Source: Geobacter metallireducens GS-15
GTDB lineage: Bacteria; Desulfobacterota; Desulfuromonadia; Geobacterales; Geobacteraceae
Assembly: GCF_000012925.1 (NCBI RefSeq)
Contig: NC_007517.1
Span: 2,490,001 to 2,522,000, forward strand
DNA: 32,000 nucleotides
Reading direction: 5' to 3'
Below, piece by piece: positions 8,972 to 32,000 of the stretch. The stretch's first letter is position 1. Every line of letters begins with the position of its first letter. Made by a program: the position numbers and the translations under genes. The notes under the pieces are model-generated. The model did no database searches and was not told the DNA's origin. It saw only the letters and a list, made by a program, of their open reading frames with translations.

Positions 8972-10642
8972 CTATTCCGTCACTACCCAACCGAACACAT
9001 CCCGCATCACCTGGCACATCTCGCCGTTCGTAGCCCCCTTCAGCGCAGCTTCCACCAGAACCGGCATCAATTCACCCTGGCCATCCCGCAGTTCCAGACA
9101 GGCATTCTTCACCGTTGCCAGGGCCTTGTCCACATCCCCCTGGTTCCGTTTGGCCTTGAACGCCTTCAACCTTTCCAGTGCCTTCACTTCCAGAGCGGTG
9201 TCAACCTTGAATGGTTCATAGTTGTCTTTTCTGTCCATGACATACTTGTTAAGGCCCACCACCGGTTGTTTGCCGCTCTTGATCTTGACCTTGGTTGCAT
9301 AGGCGCTGTTGTCGATGGCCCGCTTGATGCTGCCGTCAGCGAGACCTTGCCTATAGCCTCCCTGCTCTTCCAGTTCGTTGTATATCTTCCAGGCAGCCTG
9401 CTCCATCTGATCGGTTAATGCTTCAATGTAATAGGACCCTGCCAGGGGATCTGCCACATCCGGCAACCCGCTCTCCCACATCATGATCTGCTGGGAGCGT
9501 AAGGCTGTCCGGTGCGACAGTTCCGTCGGGATGCCAATCGTTTCGTCGTAGGAGCAGGAATGTATCGACTGTACCCCCCCCATGACTGCCGCCATGAGTT
9601 GCATGGTGATGCGCGCCGTGTTGTTGAGAGGTTGCTGGGCGGTCAGCACATTGCCACTGGTATGGACATGCACCCGGGCATGCATGCACTGGGGCTTGGT
9701 GCAGCCGGCGTCTCTGGTTATTTTCGCCCACATCCGCCGATGGGCCCGCAGCTTGGCGACCTCCTCGAAGAAATTCATCTGGATGCCGATCTGGAAACCC
9801 ATGCGCCCAACAAAACTGTCCGGTTCAAGCCCACGCTCCTTACAGGCATCGATAATCGACTTGCCCCAGGCCAAACCATACGCCAGTTCCTGGACCGGCG
9901 TGGCACCAGCCTCTGACAATCCGTACATGAACAGGTTGGCCGTGTTCCAGGCGGGGATATTGTTGGAACAGTACCTGATAAGGTCGGTCATAAGCAGATA
10001 GCCATTTTTCGGCTCCCATGAAGGGATGTCCTGAACAGCGGTCCGCGGATACCAGTTCATGGAGTTGCCATGAAGAACCCCGGGTTCCTCGCCGCGCCGG
10101 ATTGCGGCTGCCGTTATCAGTGCCAGGGCGGGGAGACAGTTATCGCCGGTTATCAGCGAAAAATTAGTCGTGTTGAGATCCCACCCCTGGATAAGGTCAT
10201 CATAGTCTTCCACGGTACAGAGGGTGACGCCGCATTGCCCGACGTTGCCTTCGGCCTCGGGATGGTCGGAATCGATGCCGTACATGGACGGGATATCCAG
10301 TACCATGTTGAACACCTTGTTGCCGAAATACCCCTCCATCCCTTGGGCAACCAGGGTCTCCATCTTCTTCCTGGTTTCCTCGACTGTCCCGTAACCGAAA
10401 ACCATCTGCTGCATCCAGGGGGTCAGGGCGTAACCGTCGGGGTAGAGGCCGCGGGTATAGGGGTAAACCCCGGGCATGGTTGCCAGGTCAAGCCCCTGGA
10501 TGTCTTCCTGGGTATAGACCGTTTTCAGGGGGATGCCCGACAGGTTTTCCCGTTGCTTCAGCTTGGCAACGTATTTTGCCCGGGCTTTCTCCCAATCCTC
10601 TTTCACCTTGGAAAAATTTTCATTAGCAACAGGACTACTCAT
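8972..10642 (-). CDS. acyl-CoA mutase large (substrate-binding TIM-barrel) subunit, methylmalonyl-CoA mutase family, divergent
   Basis: Family motifs YPYTRG, GIDSDHP, SEAGATPVQELAY, NFFEEVAKLRAHRRMWAKI, TAQQPLNNTARIT and DPLAGSYYIEALT. There is no C-terminal B12 domain, which is supplied by the separate 8486..8893 gene. GGAGGAG RBS. Confidence 0.9.
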   Translation of the reverse strand: MSSPVANENFSKVKEDWEKARAKYVAKLKQRENLSGIPLKTVYTQEDIQGLDLATMPGVYPYTRGLYPDGYALTPWMQQMVFGYGTVEETRKKMETLVAQGMEGYFGNKVFNMVLDIPSMYGIDSDHPEAEGNVGQCGVTLCTVEDYDDLIQGWDLNTTNFSLITGDNCLPALALITAAAIRRGEEPGVLHGNSMNWYPRTAVQDIPSWEPKNGYLLMTDLIRYCSNNIPAWNTANLFMYGLSEAGATPVQELAYGLAWGKSIIDACKERGLEPDSFVGRMGFQIGIQMNFFEEVAKLRAHRRMWAKITRDAGCTKPQCMHARVHVHTSGNVLTAQQPLNNTARITMQLMAAVMGGVQSIHSCSYDETIGIPTELSHRTALRSQQIMMWESGLPDVADPLAGSYYIEALTDQMEQAAWKIYNELEEQGGYRQGLADGSIKRAIDNSAYATKVKIKSGKQPVVGLNKYVMDRKDNYEPFKVDTALEVKALERLKAFKAKRNQGDVDKALATVKNACLELRDGQGELMPVLVEAALKGATNGEMCQVMRDVFGWVVTE

Positions 10643-10722
10643 ATTTACTCCTCCGTTTCTATTCGTATGGGGCGGGAACCCGTGGCGTCGGCATGAAGCT
10701 TAATTCCAGGATATTTTGTCGA

Positions 10723-11715
10723 CTATCTGTTGTTCCGTGGCGTCGTGCCATTGTCTGCAAGGATTCTCGCTTTTTCAACGAGATCAACAACCTGTTCAGA
10801 TGCACTGTATGGATCAAGTTTCAGATTCTCTATTTTGTTGATCCACTTCTGCAGATCCCTATCTGTTTTCAATGTTTCCAAGAATCTGTCCCTCACCTGC
10901 TGTGTAAGAATGTCCAGAAATTGCCTGCTTCTTCGTTTTTGACATATGCCGGTAAAAATATTCCGTTCCGTTATAAACATCAGGTGCTCAAAAATCACCG
11001 TTACAAGGTCTTCTACTCCATCTCCCTTCAACGCAGACACTTTGGCAATCGGTACTCCCCATTGATCGGCCTTGATGTTTGCACACTGAAACTCTTTCCC
11101 CCCATAGGTGACCGGCATCTCGAAACTTAAATCGTTTACCGCTCCATCCGCACCCGGCTGATCAGACTTATTCACCACCAGGATATCGCCGATCTCCAGG
11201 ATTCCGGCCTTCATCGCCTGGAGGGAATCCCCGTATCCCGGAACCAGGGTCAGAACCACCGTATGGGCAATCTTGGCAATATCCATCTCCACCTGACCGA
11301 CCCCCACGGTTTCAACAATGATGACCTCCTTGCCAAAGGCATCGAGCACATCGACCGCATCGTTGATCACTGGTGCCAACCCACCGCTGGCGCCTCGAGC
11401 TGAGAAAGAACGAATAAATACCCCGTTGTCGCCTGAGAACTCTGTCATCCTGGCACGGTCGCCAAGGATTGCTCCGTCGCTAAACGGGCTGGATGGATCG
11501 ACTGCCAGAACACCTACTGTTTTTCCGCGCCTTCTTATCTCCCTGACGAGTGCTGCAACCAGGCAACTTTTCCCTGCCCCCGGTGGTCCGGTTATCCCGA
11601 TGACATGAGCTCTGCCGCATTTGCAGTAGAGACCTTTCAACTCCTCGATCCCTTCCGGATTCCGCCGTTCGAGCAGGGAGATCAGCCGGGAAATGGATCT
11701 GTCCAGGGTTTTCAA
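10723..11715 (-). CDS. meaB: MeaB/ArgK-type G-protein metallochaperone for B12 mutases
   Basis: P-loop GITGPPGAGKS, VLAVDPSSPFSDGAILGDRARM and VVNKSD (NKxD). The start codon is TTG, as the sequence reads TTGAAAACC. It overlaps the upstream stop in a TTGA junction. Confidence 0.85.
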   Translation of the reverse strand: MKTLDRSISRLISLLERRNPEGIEELKGLYCKCGRAHVIGITGPPGAGKSCLVAALVREIRRRGKTVGVLAVDPSSPFSDGAILGDRARMTEFSGDNGVFIRSFSARGASGGLAPVINDAVDVLDAFGKEVIIVETVGVGQVEMDIAKIAHTVVLTLVPGYGDSLQAMKAGILEIGDILVVNKSDQPGADGAVNDLSFEMPVTYGGKEFQCANIKADQWGVPIAKVSALKGDGVEDLVTVIFEHLMFITERNIFTGICQKRRSRQFLDILTQQVRDRFLETLKTDRDLQKWINKIENLKLDPYSASEQVVDLVEKARILADNGTTPRNNR

Positions 11716-13559
11716 AACGATTTGTCCACCGCCTCCCAGGCCGAGACGTCGCCCCAGGCAAGAGCGGCTATTTTGCCGTCGGTGACCGGCAGGATATTGC
11801 CGATAAAGAACTGGGCGCTCCTGATTTTTCCGTCCAGAAAGGCAGCGTCCGTGTTCTTCTGAATGAATGACTTCCTGCTCTCCGCATCTTCAAGCTTCTT
11901 CTTGAGAAACAGTTCCTCGAGTTGCCCGTGCGCAACCACTGCGCCCCAAAGGAGAAACCACGCCACAACCACATCCCCGAAGGCCTCCAGGAAAGGGGTC
12001 GCCTTGAGATAGGAATAGTGCACTCCGTTTGCTTCGGCCCCTTCGGCAAGGTGGGCCGGTATACCCGCCAGAGCTGATTTCGTGCGCTCGAACTGCTCGA
12101 TATGCTTCTTCAAGCCGGGCAGTTCTGCTGCACGGTTTACCATCCCATCCATATCCTTCAGGAATTCCGCAAAGACCTGCCCCTTTTTCATCCTGATCTT
12201 ACGCAAAGCCAGGTCCATTGCCTGTATTCCCGTTGTCCCCTCGAAAATGCAGGCAACTTTGGAATCCCGCATGAACTGTTCGACCGGATACTCCTGGGTA
12301 TAACCGTATCCCCCATATACCTGGATGGCGTGGGAAGCGAATTCCACCCCCTTCTCCGTGGGGTAAGCCTTGCAGAGCGGTATCAGCAAATCGACAATCC
12401 CCTGCAGCTTCTTTTTCTCTTCCTCGTTGTCGACGACTGCCATCCGGTCCATGGCGTAGCCGCAGTAATAGAGCATCGCCCGCATCCCCTGAATGTACGA
12501 TTTCATCATGAGGAGCGTACGACGAATATCAGGATGGTGAATAATCGGAACCTGTCCGGAATCCGGATCAGCGATACTCTGACCCTGCCGTCTCTCCAGG
12601 GCGTACCTCAGTGCATGCATGTAGGAAACCGAGCAGGTCCCCTGGCCCCACATCCCCACCTCGAGCCGCGAGGCATTCATCATGTGGAACATGATCTTGA
12701 TGCCATCCTGCTCCTTGCCAAGGAGGTAGCCAGTGCAGCACCCCTTTTCGCCAAACGACATGGTAGTGGTCGGCGATGCCTTGATCCCCATCTTGTGTTC
12801 GATGCCAATACACTTGACGTCGTTCGCCTCCCCTAGAGATCCGTCAGAATTGATCTTGAATTTGGGAACAATAAAGATCGACAACCCCTTGGTCCCCGCC
12901 GGATCCCCTTCAATCCTGGCTAGAACCATATGTACCGTGTTCTCACACACGTCGCTGTCGCCGTTGGTAATGAATATCTTCTGACCAACCAGCGAATAGG
13001 TACCATCCGTGTTTCTCGTCGCCTTGAACTCGATGTTCCCCACGTCCGAACCCGCCGCAGGTTCCGTCAGGGCCATCGTGCCGAGCCACTCACCCCCGTA
13101 CATCTTGTGCAGATACTGACTCTTCTGCTGTTCCGAGCCGAAAAGTTCAATGAGTTTGGCGGCATCGTGAGTAAGGTTGACGTAGCACATGAACGGGAAG
13201 TTGGCGGCAAAGAACATCTCATGGGCCGCATTCTTGATGACATGGGGGAGTCCCTGGCCGCCAAGGGTCTCCTCTTCGCAAGCAGTGAGCCAGCCGTTCT
13301 CAACGAAGCTCTGGTAAGCCTCTGCCGTACCGGGAACCGAATAAACTTCTCCCCCCTCAAAGCGGGCACCGACCTTGTCCCCTTCGATATTCAGCGGGAA
13401 CAACACCTTTTCGGCAAACTTGCTCGCCTCTGAAAGCAGCAATCCCAGGACTTTCTCGTTCCATCCGGAAAAACGGTCGGACGCACACAGGTCCTGGACT
13501 TTTAACTGCTCAAAAAGGGCGAATTTCACATCACGTTCATCGACTAACAGATTTGCCAT
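11712..13559 (-). CDS. long-form acyl-CoA dehydrogenase (about 615 aa, with N- and C-terminal extensions, FadE/DmdC-like)
   Basis: LTEPAAGSDVG, QKIFITNGD and VYGGYGYTQEYPVEQFMRDSKVACIFEGTTGIQ. I chose the ATG at 13559 (MANLLVDERD). The track start at 13664 would overlap the upstream crotonase gene. Confidence 0.9.
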   Translation of the reverse strand: MANLLVDERDVKFALFEQLKVQDLCASDRFSGWNEKVLGLLLSEASKFAEKVLFPLNIEGDKVGARFEGGEVYSVPGTAEAYQSFVENGWLTACEEETLGGQGLPHVIKNAAHEMFFAANFPFMCYVNLTHDAAKLIELFGSEQQKSQYLHKMYGGEWLGTMALTEPAAGSDVGNIEFKATRNTDGTYSLVGQKIFITNGDSDVCENTVHMVLARIEGDPAGTKGLSIFIVPKFKINSDGSLGEANDVKCIGIEHKMGIKASPTTTMSFGEKGCCTGYLLGKEQDGIKIMFHMMNASRLEVGMWGQGTCSVSYMHALRYALERRQGQSIADPDSGQVPIIHHPDIRRTLLMMKSYIQGMRAMLYYCGYAMDRMAVVDNEEEKKKLQGIVDLLIPLCKAYPTEKGVEFASHAIQVYGGYGYTQEYPVEQFMRDSKVACIFEGTTGIQAMDLALRKIRMKKGQVFAEFLKDMDGMVNRAAELPGLKKHIEQFERTKSALAGIPAHLAEGAEANGVHYSYLKATPFLEAFGDVVVAWFLLWGAVVAHGQLEELFLKKKLEDAESRKSFIQKNTDAAFLDGKIRSAQFFIGNILPVTDGKIAALAWGDVSAWEAVDKSF

Positions 13560-13602
13560 GGCATCCGTCTTTCTTTTGTGGAGGATTGAACACCTGTGTC
13601 TA

Positions 13603-14391
13603 CTAACCCTTGTTGAAGACCGGCTTGCGCTTTTCCAGGAAGGCCAGAGTCCCTTCCTGTGCATCTGCTGTCAGGAGGATTTTGCAGAACTGGTCCTGCT
13701 CGTAATCGATCCCCCCACGGAGAGGTAGATCACCCCCTTCGTAGACCAGCTTCTTGCAGATATCCAGCACTACCGCTCCCTTGTCGATCAGCCTGCCGGC
13801 AAACGCGTTGACCGCCTCCATCAACTCATCGCGGGGGACCACCTGGTTGACAAGGCCAATCCTGTAGGCCTCCTGGGCATCAATGGGGTCGCCGGTGGAA
13901 ATCATCTCCAGCGCCCTGGTCGGCCCGACAAGTTCCCGCAGACGCTGGCTCCCCCCTGCACCGGGAATGATGCCGAGCTTTACCTCGGGCTGGCCGAATT
14001 GGGCTTTTTCTGCTGCAATCCGAAAATCACAGGCCATGGCAAGCTCGCATCCCATGCCAAAGGCAAGACCGTTTACTGCAGCAATGGTCGGCTTGGGACA
14101 ATCCTCTATCATATTCGGATTGACCAGTTGCCTGAGATCCTCCTTGATCTTTGCGGCATTCCCCAACTTGGTCCAGCCATTGACCATATTGATGTCCGCA
14201 CCGGCCATGAACGCCTTGCCGGCACCGGTCAATACGATTGCCCTCACCGATTTGTCCGCTACAAGCTCGTTGAATCCCGTTATAATATCTGCGGCAAGGG
14301 TCCGGTTGTATGCATTCAATACCTCTGGCCGATTAAAAGTCAGAACTCCAACTGCTCCGTTACGCTCCAGCATGATTGCTTCATAACTCAT
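13603..14391 (-). CDS. enoyl-CoA hydratase (crotonase family)
   Basis: VGVLTFNRPEVLNA N-terminus. Both catalytic Glu positions are present (GMGCELAM, GQPEVKLG). Confidence 0.9.
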   Translation of the reverse strand: MSYEAIMLERNGAVGVLTFNRPEVLNAYNRTLAADIITGFNELVADKSVRAIVLTGAGKAFMAGADINMVNGWTKLGNAAKIKEDLRQLVNPNMIEDCPKPTIAAVNGLAFGMGCELAMACDFRIAAEKAQFGQPEVKLGIIPGAGGSQRLRELVGPTRALEMISTGDPIDAQEAYRIGLVNQVVPRDELMEAVNAFAGRLIDKGAVVLDICKKLVYEGGDLPLRGGIDYEQDQFCKILLTADAQEGTLAFLEKRKPVFNKG

Positions 14392-20764: not shown

Positions 20765-22560
20765 ATGAATATTTTTCTGTCAGATCCCAATAACAAGGCG
20801 GCGCCAAGTTCAACGCACCTGATGGCAGTGGCTGGCGGACACAGGGAAGCGGATCTGTATATCCACAACTGTCGCGTCCTCAATATCTATTCCGGAGAGA
20901 TCCTTGCCGATGTGGGGGTGGCTATCGCCGGAGGGCGGATTGCCTATGTGGGCACCTCCCGGGGCATGGTCGGCGCCGGCACGGAAATGATTGATGCGGA
21001 GGACGGCCTACTCGTGCCAGGGTATGTGGAACCCCACTCCCACTTCGACCTGATCGTCTCCCTCGGACGCATGGCCGAAGCGGTCCTCCCCCTCGGGACA
21101 ACAACCGTTGTCAACGACACCCTCGCCATGGTGGGGCGCTTCGGAAAAACAGGACTCGACTATCTCCAGTCGGCAGCCTCATCTCTCCCCCTGCACGTCT
21201 TCTTCATGGTTTCCCGCACCAGCCTTGCACCGGAACTTGAAGAACTGGGGTATCCCACCGGCGCCAGTCTCAGCGCTGAGGAACTTGCAGACGCCCTCGG
21301 CGATGACCAGGTCCTGGGGACCGTAGAATCTCTTCCCTGGCGCAAGCTTCTGGCCGGCGACCCGAACCTCATGGCAAGCATGGAACTGTTACTCAGGAGC
21401 GGCCCAGGCACCAGGGGCATTTCCCCGGAGCCCGGGCCGACCAGATCCAGGCACTTGCAGCTGCTGGTTTCACTGACTGCCACGAAGCCCTGTCCGCGGA
21501 GGAAGCGCTGGACCGCCTGCGGGCAGGTCTCTATGTAATCCTGCGCCACGGCCCCGCACGTCCTGACCTCCCTGCTTTGGCCCGACTCGTCCATCGTGAA
21601 GAGGTGGACCGCTCACGGCTGATGTTCACCACGGACTGGGTGCCGCAGGCCGCTCTCGTGCAAACCGGACACCTGAACCATGTCATCGCCACTGCCCTGG
21701 AACTGGGGATATCACCCATTGATGCCTATCGCATGGCAACCCTTAACCCGGCCCGCTACCTGGGGATCGAGGATGATGTGGGGGCCATCGCTCCAAGAAG
21801 ATATGCGGACATCCTCTGCCTCGCCACCCTCCAGGAACCGCTACCACGCTGGGTGATGGCCTCAGGCCGCGTAGTGGCAAGGAATGGCCTGACCGTGGAT
21901 GGATGGGACGGGGAGCGAGCGGAACCGAAACTCCCCCCCTATCAGCCGCCGGTTCAGGAGACACACGTCACCGACTTTCGCATGGCCACCAATCGAAGAG
22001 GAAATGTGATCGTGCCTACCGTCGAACTGGTCGACAAAACCGTGACCAGGCGCCGGGACCTGCATATGGCAGTGAGAGATGGGGTGGTTACGCCCGAAAC
22101 CAGACGAGAAGTGATCCTTAAGATGGCCATGCCCAAACCGGAAGGGGGTTTCGCTGTCGGTTTTCTAGTGGGGATGGGCGCTCATCTCGGAGGCTTCAGC
22201 ACCTCGGTGGCCTCAGACCCCTACCACACCCTGGTTATCGGCAGCAACGACCACGACATGGCCACGGCATACAACCGCATGGTTGGCAACGGTGGGGGGA
22301 TTGTGGCCGTGCAGCAAGGCCAGATTGCGGCTGAACTCCCACTCCCTATGGGGGGATTCATATCCACGGCCCCTGTCCCCGATATCGCCGCGGACATCGA
22401 GCTCCTGAACCGCTGGGCCCAGGAGCTCGGGTGCCCATGGGACGACATCTTCCTCATTCAGCGCTACTTCACCTACATTGGCGTCCCTTTTTTCCGCATG
22501 CCCCCCTGGGGGATCTACGACGTGAAGGAACGGGCCTTTCTGCCACCGGTGCTTGACTGA
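20765..22560 (+). pseudogene. adenine deaminase-family amidohydrolase (N-terminal TIM barrel plus Adenine_deam_C domain), interrupted by one frameshift near 21401-21412
   Basis: Two track ORFs (20765..21538 and 21577..22560) lie in different frames. The second frame is open from 21307 and reads QGHFPGARADQIQALAAAGFTDCHEALSAEEALDRLRAGLYVILRHG. That is collinear with the intact paralog at 1..733 (EGHNPGARADHLQVIAAAGLTDCHEA). The N-terminal part has EPHSHFD. The C-terminal part has SDPYHTLVIGSNDHDM and GGGIVAV. The true start (20765 versus 20822) is uncertain. Confidence 0.75.
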
Positions 22561-23937: not shown

Positions 23938-25608
23938 TCAATCGGCGTCTGAAATCCTTCGGATGTGAATGCCGAGCTTGCGCATCCTGGCACGAAGAGT
24001 CGAGTGGTTGATACCGAGTATCAATGCGGCCCCCTTGGGTCCCTCTATACGGCCGTTCGTATCCGCAAGCACCTGCAGGATATGGCTCCGTTCGGCTTCT
24101 TCCAGGGTCAGCCGTGGTGCTGCGGTCTTTTCCGTTACCAAGGAACTCTTCAGGTTATCGAGCAGTTGGAGGGATGGGCCGACGGTATTGATCGCCGCAC
24201 GCTCGATGACGTTTTCCAGTTCCCGCACGTTCCCCGGCCAATCGTAGGCCTGTAAGGACTTCATCACACCTGCGGGAATGCGCCGAATACTCTTCCCCAG
24301 TTTCCGGCCGAATTTGTTCACGAAGAGATTGATGAGCAGGGGGATATCTTCCGTACGCTCACGCAGCGGCGGAACCGTGATGGGAAAGATGTTGAGGCGA
24401 TACCACAGATCCTGACGAAAACGCCCCTTGCGGACCTCTTCCTCCAGGTCCCTGTTGGTGGCGGCAACGATACGGACATCGACCTTTAACGTGCGCGAAC
24501 TGCCCAACCTCTCGAACTCTCCTTCCTGGAGCACCCGGAGGAGTTTCGCCTGGGATTCCAGAGGAAGTTCACCGATCTCGTCGAGAAAGAGGGTATTGCG
24601 GTCGGCAAACTCGAAACGCCCGATCTGCCTCACCTGGGCACTGGTAAACGCACCCTTCTCGTGGCCGAACAACTCGCTCTCTATAAGATTTGCAGGAAGC
24701 GAGGCACAGTTCACCTTAACCATCGGCCGATCTCGACGCTGGCTCGCCGCATGAATCGCCCGGGCAACCAGTTCCTTGCCAGTGCCGGTTTCCCCCAGTA
24801 TGAGGACGGTCGTGTCCGTAAGGGCAATCTGCTGGATCTTGGCCAACACCCGTTTGAGGGGAAGACTCTGGCCGATGATATGATGCACATCGTAGTTCAG
24901 ATCGATCTCCTCCCGCAAATACGTGCAGTCAGCCGCAAGTTCCTCGTTCAGTTCCTTGATCTGCTGAAACGCTTTGCGAATCTGCAGTTCTTTCTGCTTC
25001 CTTACCAGGGCGTTGGCAAAGATTTCCCCCACAAGACGCAACCGTGGCACCAGTTCATCCGGCCAGGAACGGTAGCTCCGGACCGTCGCAAGGGAAAGAG
25101 TCCCGAAGACATGCCCCCCTACCGAGATCGGAACCGACACCTGCGACTTTATGCGCAATGCCAGCAGTGCCGTTATATCAGTCGCCGCCTCCGCCGGCAG
25201 GTCATCCAGATGGGAAAACTGTACGACCTTCCCAAGATGAAACATCTTCGCAAACCAGGGGAAAAGATTATGATCGGGGGCGATAAACCCGGGGTCAGGC
25301 TTTGCGTCATCGTGTATCCACGAATGAAAAACAAGGACGCGGGAACCGTCTTCGGAGAATTGCACCAGGTTGCATCGGTCGGCCCCCAAAAATTCACCAA
25401 GCCTCTGGAGACCAGACTCAATCGTCTTATCCACCTCTTCCACAGGGAGATTGGAATAGACTGAAGATATCTCCGAAAGAAGCATCTCGAATCTCAGACG
25501 TTCTTCCAACGTGCTGCTGTTTGGACCACAAGAAGAACAGTCTACCGGAGGATTGCTCTCTCCCTGCGTCGCACCCCCCCTGTTTCCGCTTCCTCCAGGT
25601 TTCTCCAT
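23938..25608 (-). CDS. sigma-54-dependent transcriptional activator (GAF sensor, AAA+ domain, Fis-type HTH)
   Basis: 556 aa. GAF-like N-terminal region, Walker [24 protein letters not shown] loop, [18 protein letters not shown]-type motif ([11 protein letters not shown]) and C-terminal HTH ([21 protein letters not shown]). GAGGAGG RBS. Confidence 0.9.
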
Positions 25609-25801: not shown

Positions 25802-25816
25802 TGGCACGAAAGCTGC
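25802..25816 (+). promoter_or_regulatory. sigma-54 (-24/-12) promoter
   Basis: TGGCAC-GAAAG-CTGC fits TGGCAC-N5-TTGC with correct GG/GC spacing. It lies about 54 nt upstream of the ATG at 25870 and next to a divergently encoded sigma-54 activator. Confidence 0.7.
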
Positions 25817-25869
25817 GATAATAAATAGAGTGCAGCAGCATCAAAATACAAAAAATGAAAGGATTCATC

Positions 25870-26652
25870 ATGGGATTTCAGGAATTGCTTTACGAGAAAA
25901 CAGAGGGAGTCGGGGTAATCACCCTGAACAGACCAGATCGGCTGAACGCTCTCAACCGCACCATCCTGTTGGAGTTGATCCAGGTGTTGCAGGAAGCGAC
26001 TACCGATAACGAGGTACGGGTTGTACTTATCACCGGCGCGGGAAAAGGGTTCTGTGCCGGGGGTGACCTCAAGGGCCATCCGAGTTTTGAAACATCGGAC
26101 CCGCTGGTTCGCGAGGGATACGTCAAGGAATCCCATCAGGCGATACTCCTTCTGCACCACATGCCTAAGCCAGTTGTCGCAGCGGTCAACGGGGTAGCCG
26201 CCGGGGCGGGGATGAATATCGCTCTATCCTGCGACATCCGGCTTGCTTCCGATACCGCTGTCTTTACCGAATCGTTTATCAAGGCCGGAATCATGACAGA
26301 TATGGGTGGCAGCTACTTCCTTCCCAGAATCGTCGGTGTGGGACGTGCCATTGAAATGATCCTCACTGCCGAGAAGATAGATGCCGCAGAGGCTTGCCGT
26401 ATAGGTCTGGTCAACAAGGTCTTCCCCGACGCAGAATTCAGAACCGCAGCCCTCAGTTATGCGAAGGAACTGGCCAAGGGGCCGAGACAGGCCTACAAAA
26501 TGGCAAAATGGGCCATTTATACAGGATTGCAACTCGACCTGGAGGATGCCTTGAAACACGAAGAACTGGGGCAGGCGCTGCTGATTGGAACTGAGGATTC
26601 GAGCAATGCAATCAAGGCCTTTATTGAAAAACGAACTCCGGTTTTCAAATAG
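25870..26652 (+). CDS. crotonase-superfamily protein lacking both canonical hydratase glutamates (isomerase/other subclass)
   Basis: VGVITLNRPDRLNA N-terminus. It has GAGMNIAL where hydratases have GxGxE(L/I)A, and FTESFIKAG where they have xxPExxxG. I chose the ATG at 25870, which has an AAAGGA RBS at 6-nt spacing. Confidence 0.85.
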   Translation: MGFQELLYEKTEGVGVITLNRPDRLNALNRTILLELIQVLQEATTDNEVRVVLITGAGKGFCAGGDLKGHPSFETSDPLVREGYVKESHQAILLLHHMPKPVVAAVNGVAAGAGMNIALSCDIRLASDTAVFTESFIKAGIMTDMGGSYFLPRIVGVGRAIEMILTAEKIDAAEACRIGLVNKVFPDAEFRTAALSYAKELAKGPRQAYKMAKWAIYTGLQLDLEDALKHEELGQALLIGTEDSSNAIKAFIEKRTPVFK

Positions 26653-26691
26653 GAATAAATTCTAAAGATCTCAAAACAACAGGAGAAAATC

Positions 26692-28302
26692 ATGATAATC
26701 AAGAACTTACCAAAGAAATGCGATATTTTAATCATTGGTTCGGGTGCGGCCGGACTTACGTTTGCGCTCGCCGTAAAAAAGTTTAAACCGAATTTGCACG
26801 TTCACGTGGTGGAAAAGACCGAGAGTGTCGGCGGGTGTACGGCATACAGCGGCGGAGGAGTCTGGCTCCCCGGCCACCGGTTCATGGCAGACCCTTCCCA
26901 GGACACCGAAGCGGCCCGCCGGTATGTCAAAAATGTTTACCCGGAGATTGACGAAAAATGCCTCGAAGGATTCCTTGCTGATGCACCAAACCTGTTGGAT
27001 TTTTGGATCGCCAATGGTGTCGAGATGGAGAAATCCATCGGCTACCCCGATTACTACATGGAGAAGGAAGGCTCCGCCAGGGAGAGATCGGTTTTCCCCG
27101 GAGTCTACAAGGGGCCAAAGAAATACCGCTCCCTGGTCCGCAAAACCCCCGCCTATTATGTCCCCTTTACCCTTAATGAGGCTATGACCTGGGGTGTGCA
27201 CCGTTTCGGGCACTGGAACAAGACTCTGTTGACCAAACGAGCCGTTGCCGGACATATGACCATGGGAAAGGCATTCATTGCTTTCCTGCTGGAGGCGTGC
27301 ATCGAGGCCGGTGTTGATCTCTCCCTCAACAGCACTACCGAAAGGCTGGAAATAGAGAATGGCACCGTGACCGGGGCGATAATAAACGGTCAGCGGATAA
27401 CGGCGCCGGTAGTCATGATGGCAAACGGCGGTTTCTCCCACAACCCTGAACTGATGAAGCGGATCGACGCCGAGAGACCCATTCTCTCCGTAGCCCCCGA
27501 GGAGTGCGATACCGGCAACGGAGGGCTGGGCCTTGCACTGGAAGCCGGGCTCAAGATCGGCAATCCGTACTGCTGGTGGTCACCTGTCTTCAAAACCTAC
27601 GATGACCGGATCGAGGAAAAACCGGGACCGGATCTCTGGGCCTATCACAGTGCTCTCTATGACCGTTGCTGGCCTGGAGGCATCATGGTCGATGGCAACG
27701 GCAAACGGTTTACCAATGAATCAGCCTGTTACAATACTGTCGGCGGAGTGCTTGCCCAGGGAAAGGATCCGGCACTTAACAACGTATGGCTCATCTGGGG
27801 CGACTACTACGTCAAAAACTACGTCAGGGGAATCGTCTCTTACCTGCAACCTGCCAAGAGCTACATGAACAAATCAAAGACACTCGAAGATCTGGCGGAC
27901 AAAATCGGAATCCCTGCGGCAAACCTCAGGGAAACGGTGGAGCATTGGAACTCCATGGCAGGAAAGCAAAAAGACGACGATTTCCACCGGGGAGAGAGTC
28001 CGTACGACAATTATATGGGAGACAAGTTCAGAAACGGCCACCCCAATATCGAGAAGGTCGAAGGGCCATACCAGGCGGTGCGGATGCATGCTGGTACGCT
28101 CGGAACGAAGATGGGGCCGATCACCGATGAGTACGGTCGCACTCAGCTGGAAAACGGCCAATTCGTGACCGGACTCTACGCCTCGGGAAACGCTGCCGCT
28201 TCCTTCTTCGGGAACTTCTACCCCGGCGCCGGCGCAACCCTGGGACAGGGGTGCGTCTTAGCGTATCGTGCCGCGCGTCATGCCTGCGGCCAAGGGGATT
28301 GA
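26692..28302 (+). CDS. FAD-dependent dehydrogenase (FAD_binding_2; 3-ketosteroid delta1-dehydrogenase / fumarate reductase flavoprotein-like)
   Basis: CDILIIGSGAAGLTFALAV (GxGxxG), VEKTESVGGCTAYSGGGVW, and C-terminal GLYASGNAAASFFGNFYPGAGATLGQG. AGGAG RBS. Confidence 0.85.
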   Translation: MIIKNLPKKCDILIIGSGAAGLTFALAVKKFKPNLHVHVVEKTESVGGCTAYSGGGVWLPGHRFMADPSQDTEAARRYVKNVYPEIDEKCLEGFLADAPNLLDFWIANGVEMEKSIGYPDYYMEKEGSARERSVFPGVYKGPKKYRSLVRKTPAYYVPFTLNEAMTWGVHRFGHWNKTLLTKRAVAGHMTMGKAFIAFLLEACIEAGVDLSLNSTTERLEIENGTVTGAIINGQRITAPVVMMANGGFSHNPELMKRIDAERPILSVAPEECDTGNGGLGLALEAGLKIGNPYCWWSPVFKTYDDRIEEKPGPDLWAYHSALYDRCWPGGIMVDGNGKRFTNESACYNTVGGVLAQGKDPALNNVWLIWGDYYVKNYVRGIVSYLQPAKSYMNKSKTLEDLADKIGIPAANLRETVEHWNSMAGKQKDDDFHRGESPYDNYMGDKFRNGHPNIEKVEGPYQAVRMHAGTLGTKMGPITDEYGRTQLENGQFVTGLYASGNAAASFFGNFYPGAGATLGQGCVLAYRAARHACGQGD

Positions 28303-28350
28303 AACCACTGGGCCGCAAATTTTATAAACCGATGATAACAGGAGGAACAG

Positions 28351-29136
28351 ATGGGAAAACTCGCCGGAAAGGTGGCAATTATTACCGGTGGATCGCGCGG
28401 CATGGGTCGGGCTACTGTCGAGGTTTTCACTAAAGAAGGCGCCAGGGTAATCATCGCAGATGTTCTTGATGCCGAAGGAACGGCACTGGCACAAGAGATG
28501 GGAGACGGCGCAATTTACCGCCATCTTGACGTATCAGACGAAAGGGGATGGGGAGATGTGGCAAGAAGTGCGATAGATTCATTCGGCCGCATCGACATAC
28601 TTGTCAATAACGCCGCCATCTTTTTATACGCATTAATTGACGAAACCAGGAGCGAAGCCTTCAGGCGGTTACTCGACATCAACGTTATCGGCCCTTACCT
28701 TGGAATGAAAACGGTAATCCCGATCATGAAAAAACAGCGGTCAGGGTCCATCGTCAATGTCTCATCCACGGACGGTCTGCGCGGGTCCTGCGGCATGGGG
28801 GCCTACAATGCCAGCAAGTGGGGGGTCCGTGGCCTTACCAAGTGTGTAGCCATGGAAGTGGGCCCCTTCGGTATCAGGGTCAATTCACTCCATCCCGGCA
28901 CAGTCGATACACCGATGTTCAATCCGCACGGGCTGGACAGGGATGCCCTCAATGCAAGTTTCGGCAAACAGTTCCCCGGAGTCTCCCTGAGCCGGGTTGG
29001 CGATCCTTCGGAAATAGCCCGCGCCAGCCTCTTTCTGGCCAGCGACGACGCTTCTTACGTTTCCGGGGCGGAGCTGGCTGTGGACGGTGCCTGGACCTGC
29101 GGCGTCTACCTCCAAGAGAAACCGGAACCTAATTAA
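28351..29136 (+). CDS. short-chain dehydrogenase/reductase (3-alpha/20-beta-hydroxysteroid dehydrogenase-like)
   Basis: KVAIITGGSRGMGRATVEVFTKEGARVIIADV, NNAA, Ser...YNASK, PGTVDTPM. GGAGGA RBS. Confidence 0.9.
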   Translation: MGKLAGKVAIITGGSRGMGRATVEVFTKEGARVIIADVLDAEGTALAQEMGDGAIYRHLDVSDERGWGDVARSAIDSFGRIDILVNNAAIFLYALIDETRSEAFRRLLDINVIGPYLGMKTVIPIMKKQRSGSIVNVSSTDGLRGSCGMGAYNASKWGVRGLTKCVAMEVGPFGIRVNSLHPGTVDTPMFNPHGLDRDALNASFGKQFPGVSLSRVGDPSEIARASLFLASDDASYVSGAELAVDGAWTCGVYLQEKPEPN

Positions 29137-29142
29137 AAACAA

Positions 29143-29184
29143 TTGGCAACTGGATGGGGAGCATGCCACTCCCCCAGTTGCCAA
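29143..29184. terminator. bidirectional stem-loop terminator between convergent genes
   Basis: TTGGCAACTGGATGGGGAG-CATGCCA-CTCCCCCAGTTGCCAA forms a stem of about 17 bp with one bulge. It lies in the 60-bp gap between the stops at 29136 (plus) and 29197 (minus). The minus-strand side has a T-rich flank (TTGTTTTTAATT). Confidence 0.6.
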
Positions 29185-29196
29185 TCCCGCCTTTGT

Positions 29197-31872
29197 TCAC
29201 CGCATGCCAGTAAGCAGCTGACGAATTTTTTCACTCTGATTTGCTTCGTGACGCATATGGCTCCAAAGCAGCGATTCCACAGTTCCCTCCCCCAGATCCG
29301 GATGCCGGCAGCACTGAGCCAACGACTCCTGCGAAAGCCCTGCAACAAGCTGAAGCATTTCCTGACACAATGCCCGTTTATCATCTATCAGCTTATCCAG
29401 CAATTGAACCGCCAAGGTTTCCTCCGGCCTGAACGTAGCGACGTTTCCGTCAGCTACCATAACGCCCGACACGTTCCGTAGCCACTCCCGACTCTGAGCA
29501 CCAGTCCGGGATATCTCTACAAGGCTGCTCCATAAAGCGAAACGACTGTCGCTGCCGAGACGTTCTAAAAATCCGGAATCGAGATGCCCCACTAACCGCT
29601 CCAGATCGTCAGCCAGGGCCTGAAGTCCGGCCAGGATGTCGGCCCTGCCCAGGGCGGGATGGCCTGCAGGAGCGATCCGGCAGCGTCCACCACGCAGTGG
29701 CTGGTCTCCGGCAAAACTGCACAAGCCGATGTCGGTAGGAGTAATTGCATTTGCATTGGCCTCCCAGAGACCTGACAACCCGGGCTCTCCCGGCTCCCGC
29801 TCCGGGTACCACCAATACCCCTCAGGTTGAACCGTATCAGGTCGGATTTTGTCGGTCAGGAGAGCCTTCTGACGGATGCGCCCTTCAGGACGTTCGATGA
29901 TCACCCACTCTCCATCATTGATACCATGACGGGCTGCTGTCTCAGGATGAATCCAGACGGGTGGATCGGGACAATGCTTGCGCAGGGCCTCGATCTGATG
30001 GAGGTTGGACCCCATGAAATAGCGGGTACGATTCCCTGCTATCATGTGATAGGGGTAAAGGGCCGGGTCGTCCACTTCCGGCGTGCTGTAGGGTGGCCCC
30101 TCGTAGACAGGGAGAGCTTCAATACCTGCCCTTTCAAACATGGTCGGTAACAGCTCTACCTTTCCCGACGGGGTGGCAAACCCCTGTTGTTCGTGTTTTT
30201 TGTGCATGAGACGGGGAGCCTGGTAATTCCGCTCCTCTTTGGTCCACTGGGCAAAGGAACGCCCCGACGGAGCGAGGAACAGGTTGAGCATCCCTTCCAG
30301 GTCTGCCGGCCATCGGTCTTCCTGTCCCAGCCTCTTGCCAAGTCCTTTCCAGAGTTCATAATCGTTGCGCCGCTCAAAGAGAGGCTCCACCGCCTGCTCC
30401 CCGCACACGAAGAGGTGGGTCAACCCCCAGTGCATGCTGATGTCAGGCCGTTCCAGATAGTGGGCCGCGGGGAGAACATAATCAGACAGCTGGGCTGTAG
30501 GGGTCATGAACAGATCCATAGTCACCAGCAGATCAAGATTGGGGCTCGTGAACGCATCATGGGCAGCCCGTGCTCCCCCCATGGAGAGGAGCGGCTCTCC
30601 GTTCTGGACGATGACGGCCTTTACCGGATAGGGCTCTTCTGCAAGTACAGCGCGATAGATGGCGTTCTGGTTGGCAAACAGCATGTAGGCGGCCGCGTTG
30701 TGCCCCTTGGGGTGGAGACGGGCCTGGGTTTCGCGGAAGCGTTTGTATGCCTCGACGCCGATAATGGGGAACTCGGCGGAGCCAAGGGTATCCCGTGTGC
30801 GCAGGGGGTGATGCACCAGGGCATCCCAATGAATGTTGTCCAGCCAGGCGAACTGTCCCTCATCGTATTTCATGGCCAGGGGGTCGCCTCCCAGCACATC
30901 GAGATTGCCGGAGATTGCAACAAGAATCGCCCGCACAAGGGTGGCTGTACGACTGGCACCTTGACCAGCCTGCACCAATGCTACTCCGGGCACAAGACGG
31001 GCAGGACGCACTGTGCCGTACAAACGGGCCACCTCCTCGATCATCTCAACCGGAATTCCGCAGATTGCAGCGACCCGCTCCGGCGGATACTGCTCAATCA
31101 CTTCCCGGGCCTCATCAAACCCTTGGCAATATGCAGCAACAAACTCCCGATCATAGAGCCCTTCACGAAGCATGACATGGGCGATACCCAGAGCCAGGGC
31201 CCCGTCAGTGCGTGGCCGGACCGGTACCCATATATCGGCAATTTCCGCCACACGGGTCTTGCGCGGATCAACGACCACTATTTTCATTCCTTGCTTCTTT
31301 CCCTGGATAAGCCGTTCCATCACCGTAGTACCTGATTCCGCGGGATTAGACCCCCAGATCAAGGCAAGCATGGTCTTACCCGGATGGACAGCCGCATACA
31401 TCGTGTCATAACCATAAACCGAACTCTCGGCGAGAATATGCCCTACCCCGCAGTTACGCCCCTGGTTAACGAAATTGGGAGTACCGAACAGGTTGCAGAA
31501 CCGCCAGGAGGACCAATCGCCCGGCCCCTTGTGGGTACCACCGAGGGTGGCCAGCATTTCGGGTCCGAACTGGTCGCGCAGAGATGACAACTTTGCCGCG
31601 ATCTCGTCCAGAGCCTGCTCCCAACTGATCTGTTCCCATTTCATCTCGCCACGCGCCCCGATCCGCTTAAGTGGATAATTGAGGCGGCCCGGATGTTCAT
31701 GAAGATCGAGGACACGTGGCCCCTTGACACACAAGCTCCCACTGCCGATGGGGCTCGTGGGATCACCCTTTACAGCAACGGGTCGTCCGTCCTTCACGGT
31801 AACGAGAACACCGCAATGTTGCGGGCAAATTGTACAGAAAGTGCGCTTTGTACAACTGTTACTTTCAGTCAT
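29197..31872 (-). CDS. molybdopterin/tungstopterin (bis-PGD, DMSO-reductase family) catalytic subunit with a C-terminal DinB/YfiT-like domain of about 155 aa
   Basis: 891 aa from the ATG at 31872 (AAGAGG RBS). N-terminal FeS motif FCTICPQHCG...SLCVKG. ISWEQALDEIA, VVVDPRKTRVAEIADIWVPVRPRTDGAL, FMTPTAQLSDYVLPAAHYLERPD, ATPSGKVEL and a barrel domain (VWIHPETAARHGINDGEWV). It resembles the acetylene hydratase/polysulfide reductase branch. There is no twin-arginine signal. The last 155 aa (29200..29664) contain RHPDLGEGTVESLLWSHMRHE. Confidence 0.85.
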   Translation of the reverse strand: MTESNSCTKRTFCTICPQHCGVLVTVKDGRPVAVKGDPTSPIGSGSLCVKGPRVLDLHEHPGRLNYPLKRIGARGEMKWEQISWEQALDEIAAKLSSLRDQFGPEMLATLGGTHKGPGDWSSWRFCNLFGTPNFVNQGRNCGVGHILAESSVYGYDTMYAAVHPGKTMLALIWGSNPAESGTTVMERLIQGKKQGMKIVVVDPRKTRVAEIADIWVPVRPRTDGALALGIAHVMLREGLYDREFVAAYCQGFDEAREVIEQYPPERVAAICGIPVEMIEEVARLYGTVRPARLVPGVALVQAGQGASRTATLVRAILVAISGNLDVLGGDPLAMKYDEGQFAWLDNIHWDALVHHPLRTRDTLGSAEFPIIGVEAYKRFRETQARLHPKGHNAAAYMLFANQNAIYRAVLAEEPYPVKAVIVQNGEPLLSMGGARAAHDAFTSPNLDLLVTMDLFMTPTAQLSDYVLPAAHYLERPDISMHWGLTHLFVCGEQAVEPLFERRNDYELWKGLGKRLGQEDRWPADLEGMLNLFLAPSGRSFAQWTKEERNYQAPRLMHKKHEQQGFATPSGKVELLPTMFERAGIEALPVYEGPPYSTPEVDDPALYPYHMIAGNRTRYFMGSNLHQIEALRKHCPDPPVWIHPETAARHGINDGEWVIIERPEGRIRQKALLTDKIRPDTVQPEGYWWYPEREPGEPGLSGLWEANANAITPTDIGLCSFAGDQPLRGGRCRIAPAGHPALGRADILAGLQALADDLERLVGHLDSGFLERLGSDSRFALWSSLVEISRTGAQSREWLRNVSGVMVADGNVATFRPEETLAVQLLDKLIDDKRALCQEMLQLVAGLSQESLAQCCRHPDLGEGTVESLLWSHMRHEANQSEKIRQLLTGMR

Positions 31873-31946
31873 TATTAGGCCTCTTTCTTTGGGGTAGTTA
31901 CTTCTCGTACCACAGGCCGGCATCATTCAGTAGAAGGAATTGCGCG

Positions 31947-31976
31947 ATTATATATTTTGGGCAAGGCAACGGTGAA
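31947..31976 (-). promoter_or_regulatory. candidate sigma-70 promoter (TTCACC-18-TATAAT) for the Mo/W enzyme gene
   Basis: The minus strand reads TTCACC gttgccttgcccaaaata TATAAT, about 75 nt upstream of the ATG at 31872. This is sequence resemblance only. Confidence 0.25.
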
Positions 31977-32000
31977 CGCCTCCGGTACAGGGGAAATCTG

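Follow-up and report, generated by a model that had tools for sequence, protein, structure and literature searches.

In this study, we analyzed a stretch of 32,000 nucleotides from Geobacter metallireducens GS-15 (contig NC_007517.1, positions 2,490,001 to 2,522,000), the whole of which is called the window here and to which all coordinates refer unless a genome or a locus is named, and our data point to a fusion of two protein families in the product of Gmet_2227 (29197..31872, minus strand). By fold and descent, residues 1 to 736 place the protein in the acetylene hydratase (AH) branch of the enzymes that carry molybdenum (Mo) or tungsten (W) at a bis(pyranopterin guanine dinucleotide) (bis-PGD) cofactor, with a pocket that is not that of AH. 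The remaining residues, 737 to 891, are, as judged from sequence profiles and structure prediction, a genuine DinB_2 four-helix bundle. The architecture is a new domain combination of known families and not a new kind of system, and the gene forms part of an operon for the catabolism of coenzyme A (CoA) esters.

The open reading frame (ORF) codes for 891 amino acids followed by a stop codon; the preliminary description of this DNA had delimited it exactly as it stands in the ORF list, and its product matches ABB32454.1/Q39TH0 from the same strain with 100% identity. In the supplement of Butler 2007, Gmet_2227 is named "Molybdopterin oxidoreductase" (genome positions 2519197..2521872), and the gene is housed in the 300-kb aromatics island of the organism (Butler 2007). 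That supplement is the exception in the literature, and no gene of the type Gmet_222x appears in the main text of any of the papers searched. The start codon at 31872 is preferred over an upstream alternative, because a Shine-Dalgarno sequence, GAAAGAGG (region aaaGAAAGAGG, 31880..31890, minus strand), is located 7 nucleotides upstream of this ATG and because the orthologues P0002 to P0004 (see below) all open at the equivalent MTE/MSD position. The alternative ORF of 909 codons opens at ATG 31926, where its start codon and the Gmet_2228 stop codon share bases (ATGA; 31923..31926, minus strand); RefSeq WP_337998864.1 (909 amino acids) is one record using it.

Searches covering about 15 billion proteins revealed five Mo-DinB fusion sequences in all, which makes this architecture very rare. 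Besides Gmet_2227, these are P0002 (903 amino acids, 81% identity), encoded on a metagenome contig (locus L003) with a synteny almost identical to that of Geobacter; P0003 (896 amino acids, 70% identity) from a Chloroflexota metagenome-assembled genome (MAG; FW602_bin.16, locus L004), which is named merely "DUF664 domain-containing protein" at NCBI; P0004 (885 amino acids, 67% identity) from a Desulfobacterales MAG (locus L006); and P0122, a truncated metagenomic sequence. The preliminary description, which knew of no such fusion and proposed a database search for the same architecture, is thereby answered with four further examples, and the papers searched hold no description of a DinB-molybdopterin fusion. 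We give next to no weight to the explanation that a sequencing frameshift or a misassembly has joined the gene of a Mo enzyme to a separate DinB gene, and it is rejected, with nothing seen in its favor, on the evidence of orthologues and independent assemblies: the finished genome encodes the identical 891-amino-acid product, as do two independent Logan assemblies, the same architecture recurs in four other sequences from different organisms, which makes five independent sequences sharing it, and the last β-strand of domain IV leads directly into helix 1 of the DinB domain with no linker in between.

The closest tail-less relatives, about 100 proteins with identities of ≤60%, are about 740 amino acids long and end a few residues past a conserved RCR motif. 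In a distance-based bootstrap analysis of the catalytic domain, four fusion proteins had mutual distances of ≤0.27, compared to ≥0.39 to any tail-less protein (200 of 200 bootstraps). Furthermore, the fusion proteins have 14 private substitutions of the catalytic domain in common, including Thr182 and Pro295, which are equivalent to pocket positions of AH, and His145 beside the metal ligand. The fusion proteins therefore form one clade, and by these distances and substitutions, the DinB domain is shown to have been gained once, by the ancestor of this small clade. A Rosetta-stone test revealed no separate DinB gene beside the tail-less relatives, with three loci that are too few for a conclusion.

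The preliminary description had noted about 155 extra residues behind the β-barrel domain and had likened them to DinB/YfiT proteins. The position is exact (29200..29664, minus strand), and the likeness is borne out, although the Geobacter tail alone matches DinB_2 with an E value of only 0.0026 to 0.0027 (18.6 to 18.7 bits), which is below the Pfam gathering threshold of 24.8 bits; therefore, the assignment is built on the orthologues, on a search with a profile, and on fold prediction. All four full-length fusion tails match DinB_2 (best E 3.8e-17), those of P0002 and P0003 exceed the gathering threshold, and some also match MST, MDMPI_N, and DinB. The four tails align over their whole length with 23 invariant columns, among them the motifs HP..G..E.LLW and E..IR. 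A profile of the four tails matched 475 proteins in an exhaustive search of 1.84 billion representatives; the best 150 of these are mostly proteins of about 156 amino acids or two-copy forms of about 320 amino acids, and those sampled are DinB_2 proteins according to Pfam. In a joint alignment, the tails are collinear end to end with stand-alone DinB_2 proteins.

Structure prediction leads to the same assignment. AlphaFold2 (AF2) folded the isolated tail into four long helices and a small hairpin, with a predicted local distance difference test (pLDDT) score of 79 and a predicted template modeling (pTM) score of 0.71, and 22 of the 23 top PDB matches in Foldseek were DinB/YfiT folds or closely similar four-helix bundles, with probabilities of 0.97 to 1.0 and TM scores of 0.6 to 0.67 but E values of merely about 1e-2. 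Among the matches were YfiT (1rxq), BH0186 (2rd9), the mycothiol S-transferase of Mycobacterium tuberculosis (8f5v), DR0053, MDMPI (mycothiol-dependent maleylpyruvate isomerase), BstA, ClbS, and EgtB. A phmmer search of the PDB with the tail alone returned only noise (Mediator Med29, E 0.7), and NCBIfam gave zero matches for the tail. Word-indexed searches with the tail alone, either as a single sequence or as an alignment, were empty, but since they also missed the identical P0001 to P0004, they are uninformative for short divergent domains. In the AF2 model of the full-length protein (pLDDT 92.4, pTM 0.92), helix 1 of the DinB domain opens at residue 743, straight after the last strand of domain IV (residues 727 to 735), and the junction is free of a linker (residues 731 to 750, pLDDT 93 to 94). 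The pLDDT of the tail rises from 79 in isolation to about 85 to 94 within the full-length model. This model suggests a rigid packing of the tail against domain IV, the two being joined without a flexible linker.

The catalytic part contains three Pfam domains, each above its gathering threshold, and all lie on the minus strand: the [4Fe-4S] FS0 domain Molybdop_Fe4S4 (PF04879; residues 9 to 56, 31705..31848, E 5e-11), the Molybdopterin oxidoreductase domains II/III (PF00384; residues 63 to 513, 30334..31686, E 1e-37, 130 bits compared to a threshold of 24; AF2 pLDDT mostly >90), and the dinucleotide-binding β-barrel Molydop_binding, or domain IV (PF01568; residues 614 to 714, 29731..30033, E 2e-17, 63.5 bits compared to a threshold of 26.8). 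The cluster motif Cx2Cx3C...C and the bis-PGD domains were read correctly in the preliminary description. The motif corresponds to C13/C16/C20/C48 of the FS0 domain, which together with Cys141 (31450..31452, minus strand; codons of all five verified) are invariant in 111 relatives (111/111 clade members for Cys141) and align with C9/C12/C16/C46/C141 of AH. By family membership, Gmet_2227 is predicted to bind Mo- or W-bis-PGD, with Cys141 as the putative metal ligand, and one [4Fe-4S] cluster.

The likeness to AH, too, had been noted from the letters. AH of Pelobacter acetylenicus (2e7z) is the top PDB sequence match (E 1.4e-107, 33% identity, residues 9 to 729) and superposes on the AF2 model with a TM score of 0.90 (E 3.7e-52), with the next Foldseek matches, Fdh, Psr, and Nap, far behind (E about 1e-36 to 1e-37); many members of the DMSO-reductase superfamily were matched at a probability of 1.0. 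Like Gmet_2227, AH is cytoplasmic, has no twin-arginine translocation (Tat) signal, and holds a single [4Fe-4S] cluster on Cx2Cx3C...C; it is monomeric, and no gene for a beta or gamma subunit lies beside Gmet_2227. Both have the Cys metal ligand at the same alignment position, the Lys between cluster and pterin (Lys50, equivalent to Lys48 of AH), and Trp472 of AH. In contrast, Pro17 of Gmet_2227 (31822..31824, minus strand) takes the place of the catalytic Asp13 of AH, as the preliminary description had stated, a DinB domain of 155 residues is appended, and the gene belongs to a CoA-ester catabolic operon and not to an acetylene pathway. At the position of Asp13, the five commonest entries listed for the clade are Pro (55), gaps (12), Gly (20), Asn (6), and Trp (4), and Asp is not among these five in the alignment with 111 relatives.

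The hydrophobic acetylene pocket of AH is formed by Ile14, Ile113, Ile142, Trp179, Trp293, and Trp472. In the alignment, the first five are replaced in Gmet_2227 by Gln, His, Gly, Thr, and Pro, respectively, and Trp472 (Trp482 in Gmet_2227) is the only one of the six that is kept; the Gly that stands where AH has Ile142 is Gly142, follows the metal ligand, and is itself invariant. With the catalytic Asp13 and five of six pocket residues gone, Gmet_2227 is not an acetylene hydratase (EC 4.2.1.112), and this candidate was rejected. In the papers on benzene degradation by G. metallireducens, AH was raised merely as an idea, and other genes were concerned.

No equivalog cutoff of NCBIfam was reached by Gmet_2227, the top model being PhsA with 286 bits compared to the 694 bits required. 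Neither an RR motif nor a hydrophobic region is present in the N terminus of the 891- or the 909-amino-acid form, and since the FeS domain opens at residue 9, the 8 residues before it leave no space for a Tat signal; the preliminary description had likewise found none. It had also seen no adjoining gene for an FeS or membrane subunit, and indeed, neither the window nor the 10 kb that follow its end at position 32000 contain a classical beta or gamma subunit gene, nor is one adjacent at any of the orthologous or tail-less loci examined. A respiratory enzyme of the Psr/Phs/Dms/Nar type was rejected on these grounds, since the protein lacks a Tat signal and since neither beta nor gamma genes were seen in the window or 10 kb upstream. 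The same features support a cytoplasmic, soluble, and nonrespiratory enzyme as the predicted state of Gmet_2227. Within the wider clade, P0097 from a Georgfuchsia MAG (800 amino acids; 55% identity over 60% of the query) combines CoA_transf_3 (PF02515) with the Mo domains, which could be a further fusion tying the clade to CoA-ester metabolism or an artifact of gene calling.

Three metal-binding His residues, one on helix 1-2 and two in an HxxxH motif on the last helix, are the only fully conserved residues of characterized DinB/STL transferases, whose activity is metal dependent (PMC5815605). The tail of Gmet_2227 resembles the DinB/YfiT proteins (STL: BstA/YfiT, the M. tuberculosis mycothiol S-transferase, DR0053) in its four-helix bundle and the order of its elements, in the conserved HP..G loop and the C-terminal HExxH-type helix, and in its full-length alignment with DinB_2 proteins of about 156 amino acids. 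It differs from them in being fused C-terminally to a molybdoenzyme part of 736 amino acids, in its subthreshold score when taken alone, and in its metal site, where only one of three His is left (His875). The first metal-binding His is replaced by Glu786 (29515..29517, minus strand), as seen in alignments with stand-alone DinB_2 proteins and the orthologues; the preliminary description had noticed this loss, and the third His is likewise lost (Gln879). The remnant of the DinB HxxxH motif is H875-E-A-N-Q879 (29236..29250, minus strand), and an extra His872 (29257..29259, minus strand) is located one helical turn before His875; the codons of all these residues were verified. The domain had been described as being of the metal-dependent, thiol-transferase-like type, but with a triad of Glu786/His875/Gln879, the Geobacter domain is probably not a canonical member of that type. 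The triad varies among the fusion proteins, being H/H/H in P0002 and P0003, R/E/E in P0004, and Q/N/H in P0122.

Gmet_2227 is the last of 13 codirectional genes (Gmet_2239 to Gmet_2227), which are bounded upstream by the IS4 transposase Gmet_2240, so that the gene does not stand alone as the preliminary description had it. The run is headed by Gmet_2239, a multi-[4Fe-4S] protein of 371 amino acids, followed by Gmet_2238 (acyl-CoA thioesterase), Gmet_2237 (VOC/glyoxalase), Gmet_2236 (an SDR, or short-chain dehydrogenase/reductase), Gmet_2235 (Zn-dependent alcohol dehydrogenase), Gmet_2234 (thioesterase), Gmet_2233 (metallo-β-lactamase fold), Gmet_2232 (SnoaL-like), Gmet_2231 (SDR), Gmet_2230 (DapB-like oxidoreductase), Gmet_2229 (AMP-forming ligase), and Gmet_2228, a 4HBT_2 thioesterase (PF13279; locus L001, 9495..9950; genome positions 2521923..2522378 according to Butler 2007). 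The 3′ end of Gmet_2228 occupies 31923..32000 (minus strand) with the stop at 31923, 50 bp upstream of the start codon of Gmet_2227. Of the two boundaries that had been proposed for the gene, the convergent terminator stands as a likely one, but the upstream region of its own does not, because what lies there is the 3′ end of Gmet_2228, cut off by the edge of the window. No electron transfer partner is adjacent to Gmet_2227, yet the polyferredoxin Gmet_2239 heads the operon.

The likely terminator is a hairpin with a 17-bp stem (29142..29185; −26.7 kcal/mol, z −3.72, 0 of 200 shuffles as stable) that sits in the 60-bp intergenic gap between convergent genes and is followed on the minus strand by TTGTTTTT; it is likely bidirectional. 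A σ70-like promoter match, TTCACC-18-TATAAT (10 of 12 positions; 31947..31976, minus strand), falls within the 3′ end of Gmet_2228, some 75 bp before the start of Gmet_2227, and could be an internal promoter, although it is a consensus match only and 3 such matches were found in the region compared to 1.5 expected.

On the other side of the hairpin lies the convergent operon Gmet_2224 to Gmet_2226 (25855..29136, plus strand), which encodes an enoyl-CoA hydratase (ECH), a flavoprotein of the KstD/fumarate reductase type, and an SDR, as assigned by Pfam, and is syntenic in the P0002 locus. Divergent from Gmet_2224 is the gene of a σ54 enhancer-binding protein with a GAF domain (23938..25608, minus strand; Pfam), a kind of gene that is found beside the fusion gene at three of four loci; the Geobacter gene probably carries the tag Gmet_2223, as judged from its position. 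A σ54-type −24/−12 element, tGGCACgaaagcTGCg (GG-N10-GC; 25802..25817, plus strand), was seen about 35 bp upstream of the start of Gmet_2224 at 25855, and the operon is probably σ54 dependent, as far as the promoter sequence tells. A strict σ54 promoter pattern allowing ≤1 mismatch gave no match in the window or in L001; it missed this element because of two mismatches. Visual inspection revealed the element, and only upstream of Gmet_2224.

Closer inspection of the four fusion loci revealed recurrent partners: an acyl-CoA ligase and an ECH at all four, and an SDR, a SnoaL/NTF2 protein, a VOC protein of about 150 amino acids, a σ54 activator, and a reductase of the old yellow enzyme type (counting the one at 779..2845 of the window) at three each. 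SDR, SnoaL_4, and VOC genes also accompany a tail-less actinobacterial relative, and in both L003 and L007, the Mo gene has an SDR gene directly downstream. The P0003 gene is directly followed, in L004 (12843..14321), by genes for a 55-amino-acid ferredoxin with two [4Fe-4S] clusters and a 434-amino-acid FAD-dependent oxidoreductase, which by their sequences look like a dedicated electron supply chain that is lacking at the Geobacter locus.

Farther away in the window (8972..14391, minus strand) are genes for the large subunit of a B12-dependent acyl-CoA mutase, MeaB, a long acyl-CoA dehydrogenase (650 amino acids, Acyl-CoA_dh_C), and an ECH. The trio of MeaB, long acyl-CoA dehydrogenase, and ECH is also found upstream of the Desulfobacterales fusion gene (L006, 1..2689), which suggests a larger conserved catabolic neighborhood with a predicted carbon skeleton rearrangement. 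The transposase Gmet_2240 lies beyond the window (genome positions 2532959..2534035) and is 100% identical to Gmet_2091 (Butler 2007); therefore, a composite transposon over much of the aromatics island is possible, and a horizontal acquisition of the cluster is consistent with this. Finally, a gene for an adenine deaminase-like amidohydrolase appears to be divided over two successive ORFs, one weakly matching the N-terminal part of Amidohydro_1 (20765..21538, plus strand) and one with the C-terminal part of Amidohydro_1 and with Adenine_deam_C (21577..22560, plus strand); either a pseudogene with a frameshift or a truly split gene may be the explanation.

What does the enzyme do? We lean toward a model in which Gmet_2227 catalyzes Mo/W-dependent oxygen chemistry on a cyclic, CoA-linked substrate and in which the DinB tail of the Geobacter protein is accessory and noncatalytic. 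The Cys141-ligated metal center would add a water-derived oxygen function to a carbon of the substrate, or remove one from it, in a pocket unlike the acetylene pocket, and the resulting alcohol would then be handled by the coconserved SDRs; it is from these neighboring SDRs that we infer an alcohol product, i.e., hydration or hydroxylation. The tail would serve as a fixed accessory wall or as a module to which the substrate or a partner protein binds or docks. The preliminary description had proposed a single-subunit, nonrespiratory hydratase or hydroxylase with a built-in accessory domain; the accessory domain has proved to be a genuine DinB fold by the Pfam matches of its orthologues, the profile search, and Foldseek, and the nonrespiratory nature agrees with the missing Tat signal and adjacent subunits, but a hydratase or hydroxylase is not established, as the catalytic residues of AH are absent.

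Several points speak against this model. Hydration or hydroxylation is read from the gene neighborhood alone. Because the Asp of AH is missing, a nonredox hydratase mechanism would have no identified acid/base residue, and a redox role is equally possible, since the characterized sister group of AH consists of reductive enzymes, the catechol dehydroxylases. Gmet_2227 is not on the list of benzoate-induced genes. The tail evolves almost ten times faster than the catalytic part, which also fits a decaying remnant, and Glu786 and His875 together with His872 or Gln879 could, as far as the residues permit such a prediction, make up a metal site of the 2-His-1-carboxylate type, so that the tail may not be catalytically dead.

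It is possible, if doubtful, that Gmet_2227 resembles the Gordonibacter-type enzymes and is a soluble, reductive catechol or phenol dehydroxylase, which would take a ring hydroxyl group off an aromatic acid or the corresponding CoA ester, e.g., a dihydroxybenzoyl-CoA, with electrons passing from ferredoxin to the [4Fe-4S] cluster and with the DinB tail again as an accessory. The catechol dehydroxylases are sister to AH, and Geobacter is among the hosts of their homologues (PMC7028382). The Gordonibacter-type enzymes (Cldh, Dodh, Gp Hcdh), compared here by description, belong to the bis-MGD branch next to AH, have no Tat signal and catalytic subunits of about 700 to 750 amino acids, like the catalytic part of Gmet_2227, occur as homologues in anaerobic degraders of aromatic compounds, including Geobacter, and are paired with a small 4Fe-4S protein (PMC7028382). 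The location of Gmet_2227 within the aromatics degradation island, the polyferredoxin at the head of its operon, the loss of the AH Asp, and the ferredoxin and FAD oxidoreductase genes behind the Chloroflexota fusion gene are in line with such a function. However, the colocalized small 4Fe-4S protein typical of the soluble dehydroxylases is present beside P0003 only and absent beside Gmet_2227, P0002, and P0004, the Tat signal that membrane-type dehydroxylases combine with a 4Fe-4S protein and a membrane anchor is lacking, the Geobacter locus has no adjacent transporter of the major facilitator superfamily and a CoA-ester context, and the conserved SDRs beside the Mo gene fit the formation of an alcohol better than the removal of a hydroxyl group. 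Moreover, the likeness to Dadh, Cldh, and Dodh is drawn from descriptions and not from a comparison of sequences, and a DinB domain is described for none of the dehydroxylases.

With regard to the tail, the alternatives to an accessory module are a second active site and a functionless remnant. We consider it quite unlikely that the enzyme is bifunctional, with a second mononuclear metal in the DinB domain, bound by the three His in P0002 and P0003 and by Glu786 and His875 plus His872 or Gln879 in Geobacter, and with thiol-dependent chemistry, such as conjugate addition, isomerization, or the cleavage of a thioether, either on the substrate of the Mo site or on its product. The active site for this chemistry would be located at the domain interface as in EgtB, LmbV, and MDMPI, in which a DinB module is likewise covalently linked to another domain that confers specificity (PMC5815605). 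These precedents, the presence of MDMPI and EgtB among the Foldseek matches, the intact His triad in two of five fusion tails, the rigid packing in the model, and the fact that each of Glu, His, and Gln could bind a metal speak for this idea. MDMPI acts in aromatic catabolism. In EgtB, LmbV, and MDMPI, however, an N-terminal DinB domain with a preserved metal site forms the catalytic center, whereas that of Gmet_2227 is C-terminal and its partner is a complete, self-sufficient metalloenzyme. Furthermore, three of the five tails no longer have the triad, the R/E/E of P0004 being unable to form a canonical site, and the region with the first ligand is the most variable of the tail (15 to 37% identity per 30-amino-acid bin). 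With E/H/Q in Geobacter and a destroyed triad in two other members, the Geobacter tail is most likely not a metal-dependent thiol S-transferase, and an active second metal site is more plausible for the orthologues with an intact triad. A two-center enzyme, in which Mo/W oxygen atom chemistry is coupled within a single polypeptide to a thiol-dependent addition or isomerization on a reactive intermediate of the enone or quinone type, is an improbable scheme as well. The DinB bundle would supply a second mononuclear metal or a thiol-binding site where it meets the molybdoenzyme, with 3 His in P0002 and P0003 and a variant of the Glu/His/His type in Geobacter.

The sequence evolution of the tail bears on both alternatives. 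Tail identity is 36 to 43% in every pair, whatever the identity of the catalytic part (74 to 91%), and falls sharply at about residue 750. Between Geobacter and P0002, the nonsynonymous substitution rate (dN) is 0.054 in the catalytic part (synonymous rate [dS], 0.74) but 0.62 in the tail, and where dS is not saturated, dN/dS amounts to 0.24 to 0.46 in the tail compared to 0.06 to 0.10 in the catalytic part, which also argues against a second active site. It is unlikely, in our view, that the tail is a functionless leftover of an old fusion that drifts nearly neutrally and is tolerated as harmless, even though its uniform divergence, its high dN, the loss of the triad in three of five sequences, and the roughly 100 closest relatives that work without a tail would agree with it. 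Against such a leftover stand a reading frame and a length (149 to 167 amino acids) that are kept in all lineages found, from at least two phyla, the 23 invariant columns with the DinB motifs, a dN/dS below 1 wherever measurable, and a confidently predicted fold with no disordered linker. From these substitution patterns, the tail is judged to be under weak but nonzero purifying selection. At codons for identical residues, synonymous changes between Geobacter and P0002 are more frequent in the tail (35/56, 0.62) than in the catalytic part (231/667, 0.35; Fisher p 7e-5), in a small sample and with no distinct GC content or GC content at third codon positions in the tail; this excess points to either a strong relaxation or a recombinational mosaic as possible causes.

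The branch of molybdoenzymes formed by AH and the catechol dehydroxylases is large and almost entirely uncharacterized outside gut Actinobacteria, and Gmet_2227 is a member of this branch in a genetically tractable model anaerobe, encoded in a defined operon within the aromatics island and equipped with a pocket that differs from that of every characterized enzyme. The orthologue series, in which the His triad is intact, partly lost, or fully lost, is a natural experiment on a catalytic module turning structural. If the tail is inert, the fusion would be a minor curiosity; if it serves substrate binding or a second reaction, it would widen both what is known of the domains that bis-PGD enzymes carry and the range of functions of the DinB/STL fold. 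Should the two-center scheme be true, Gmet_2227 would be the first molybdoenzyme to have recruited an STL/DinB domain, and anaerobic ring catabolism would gain a new step.

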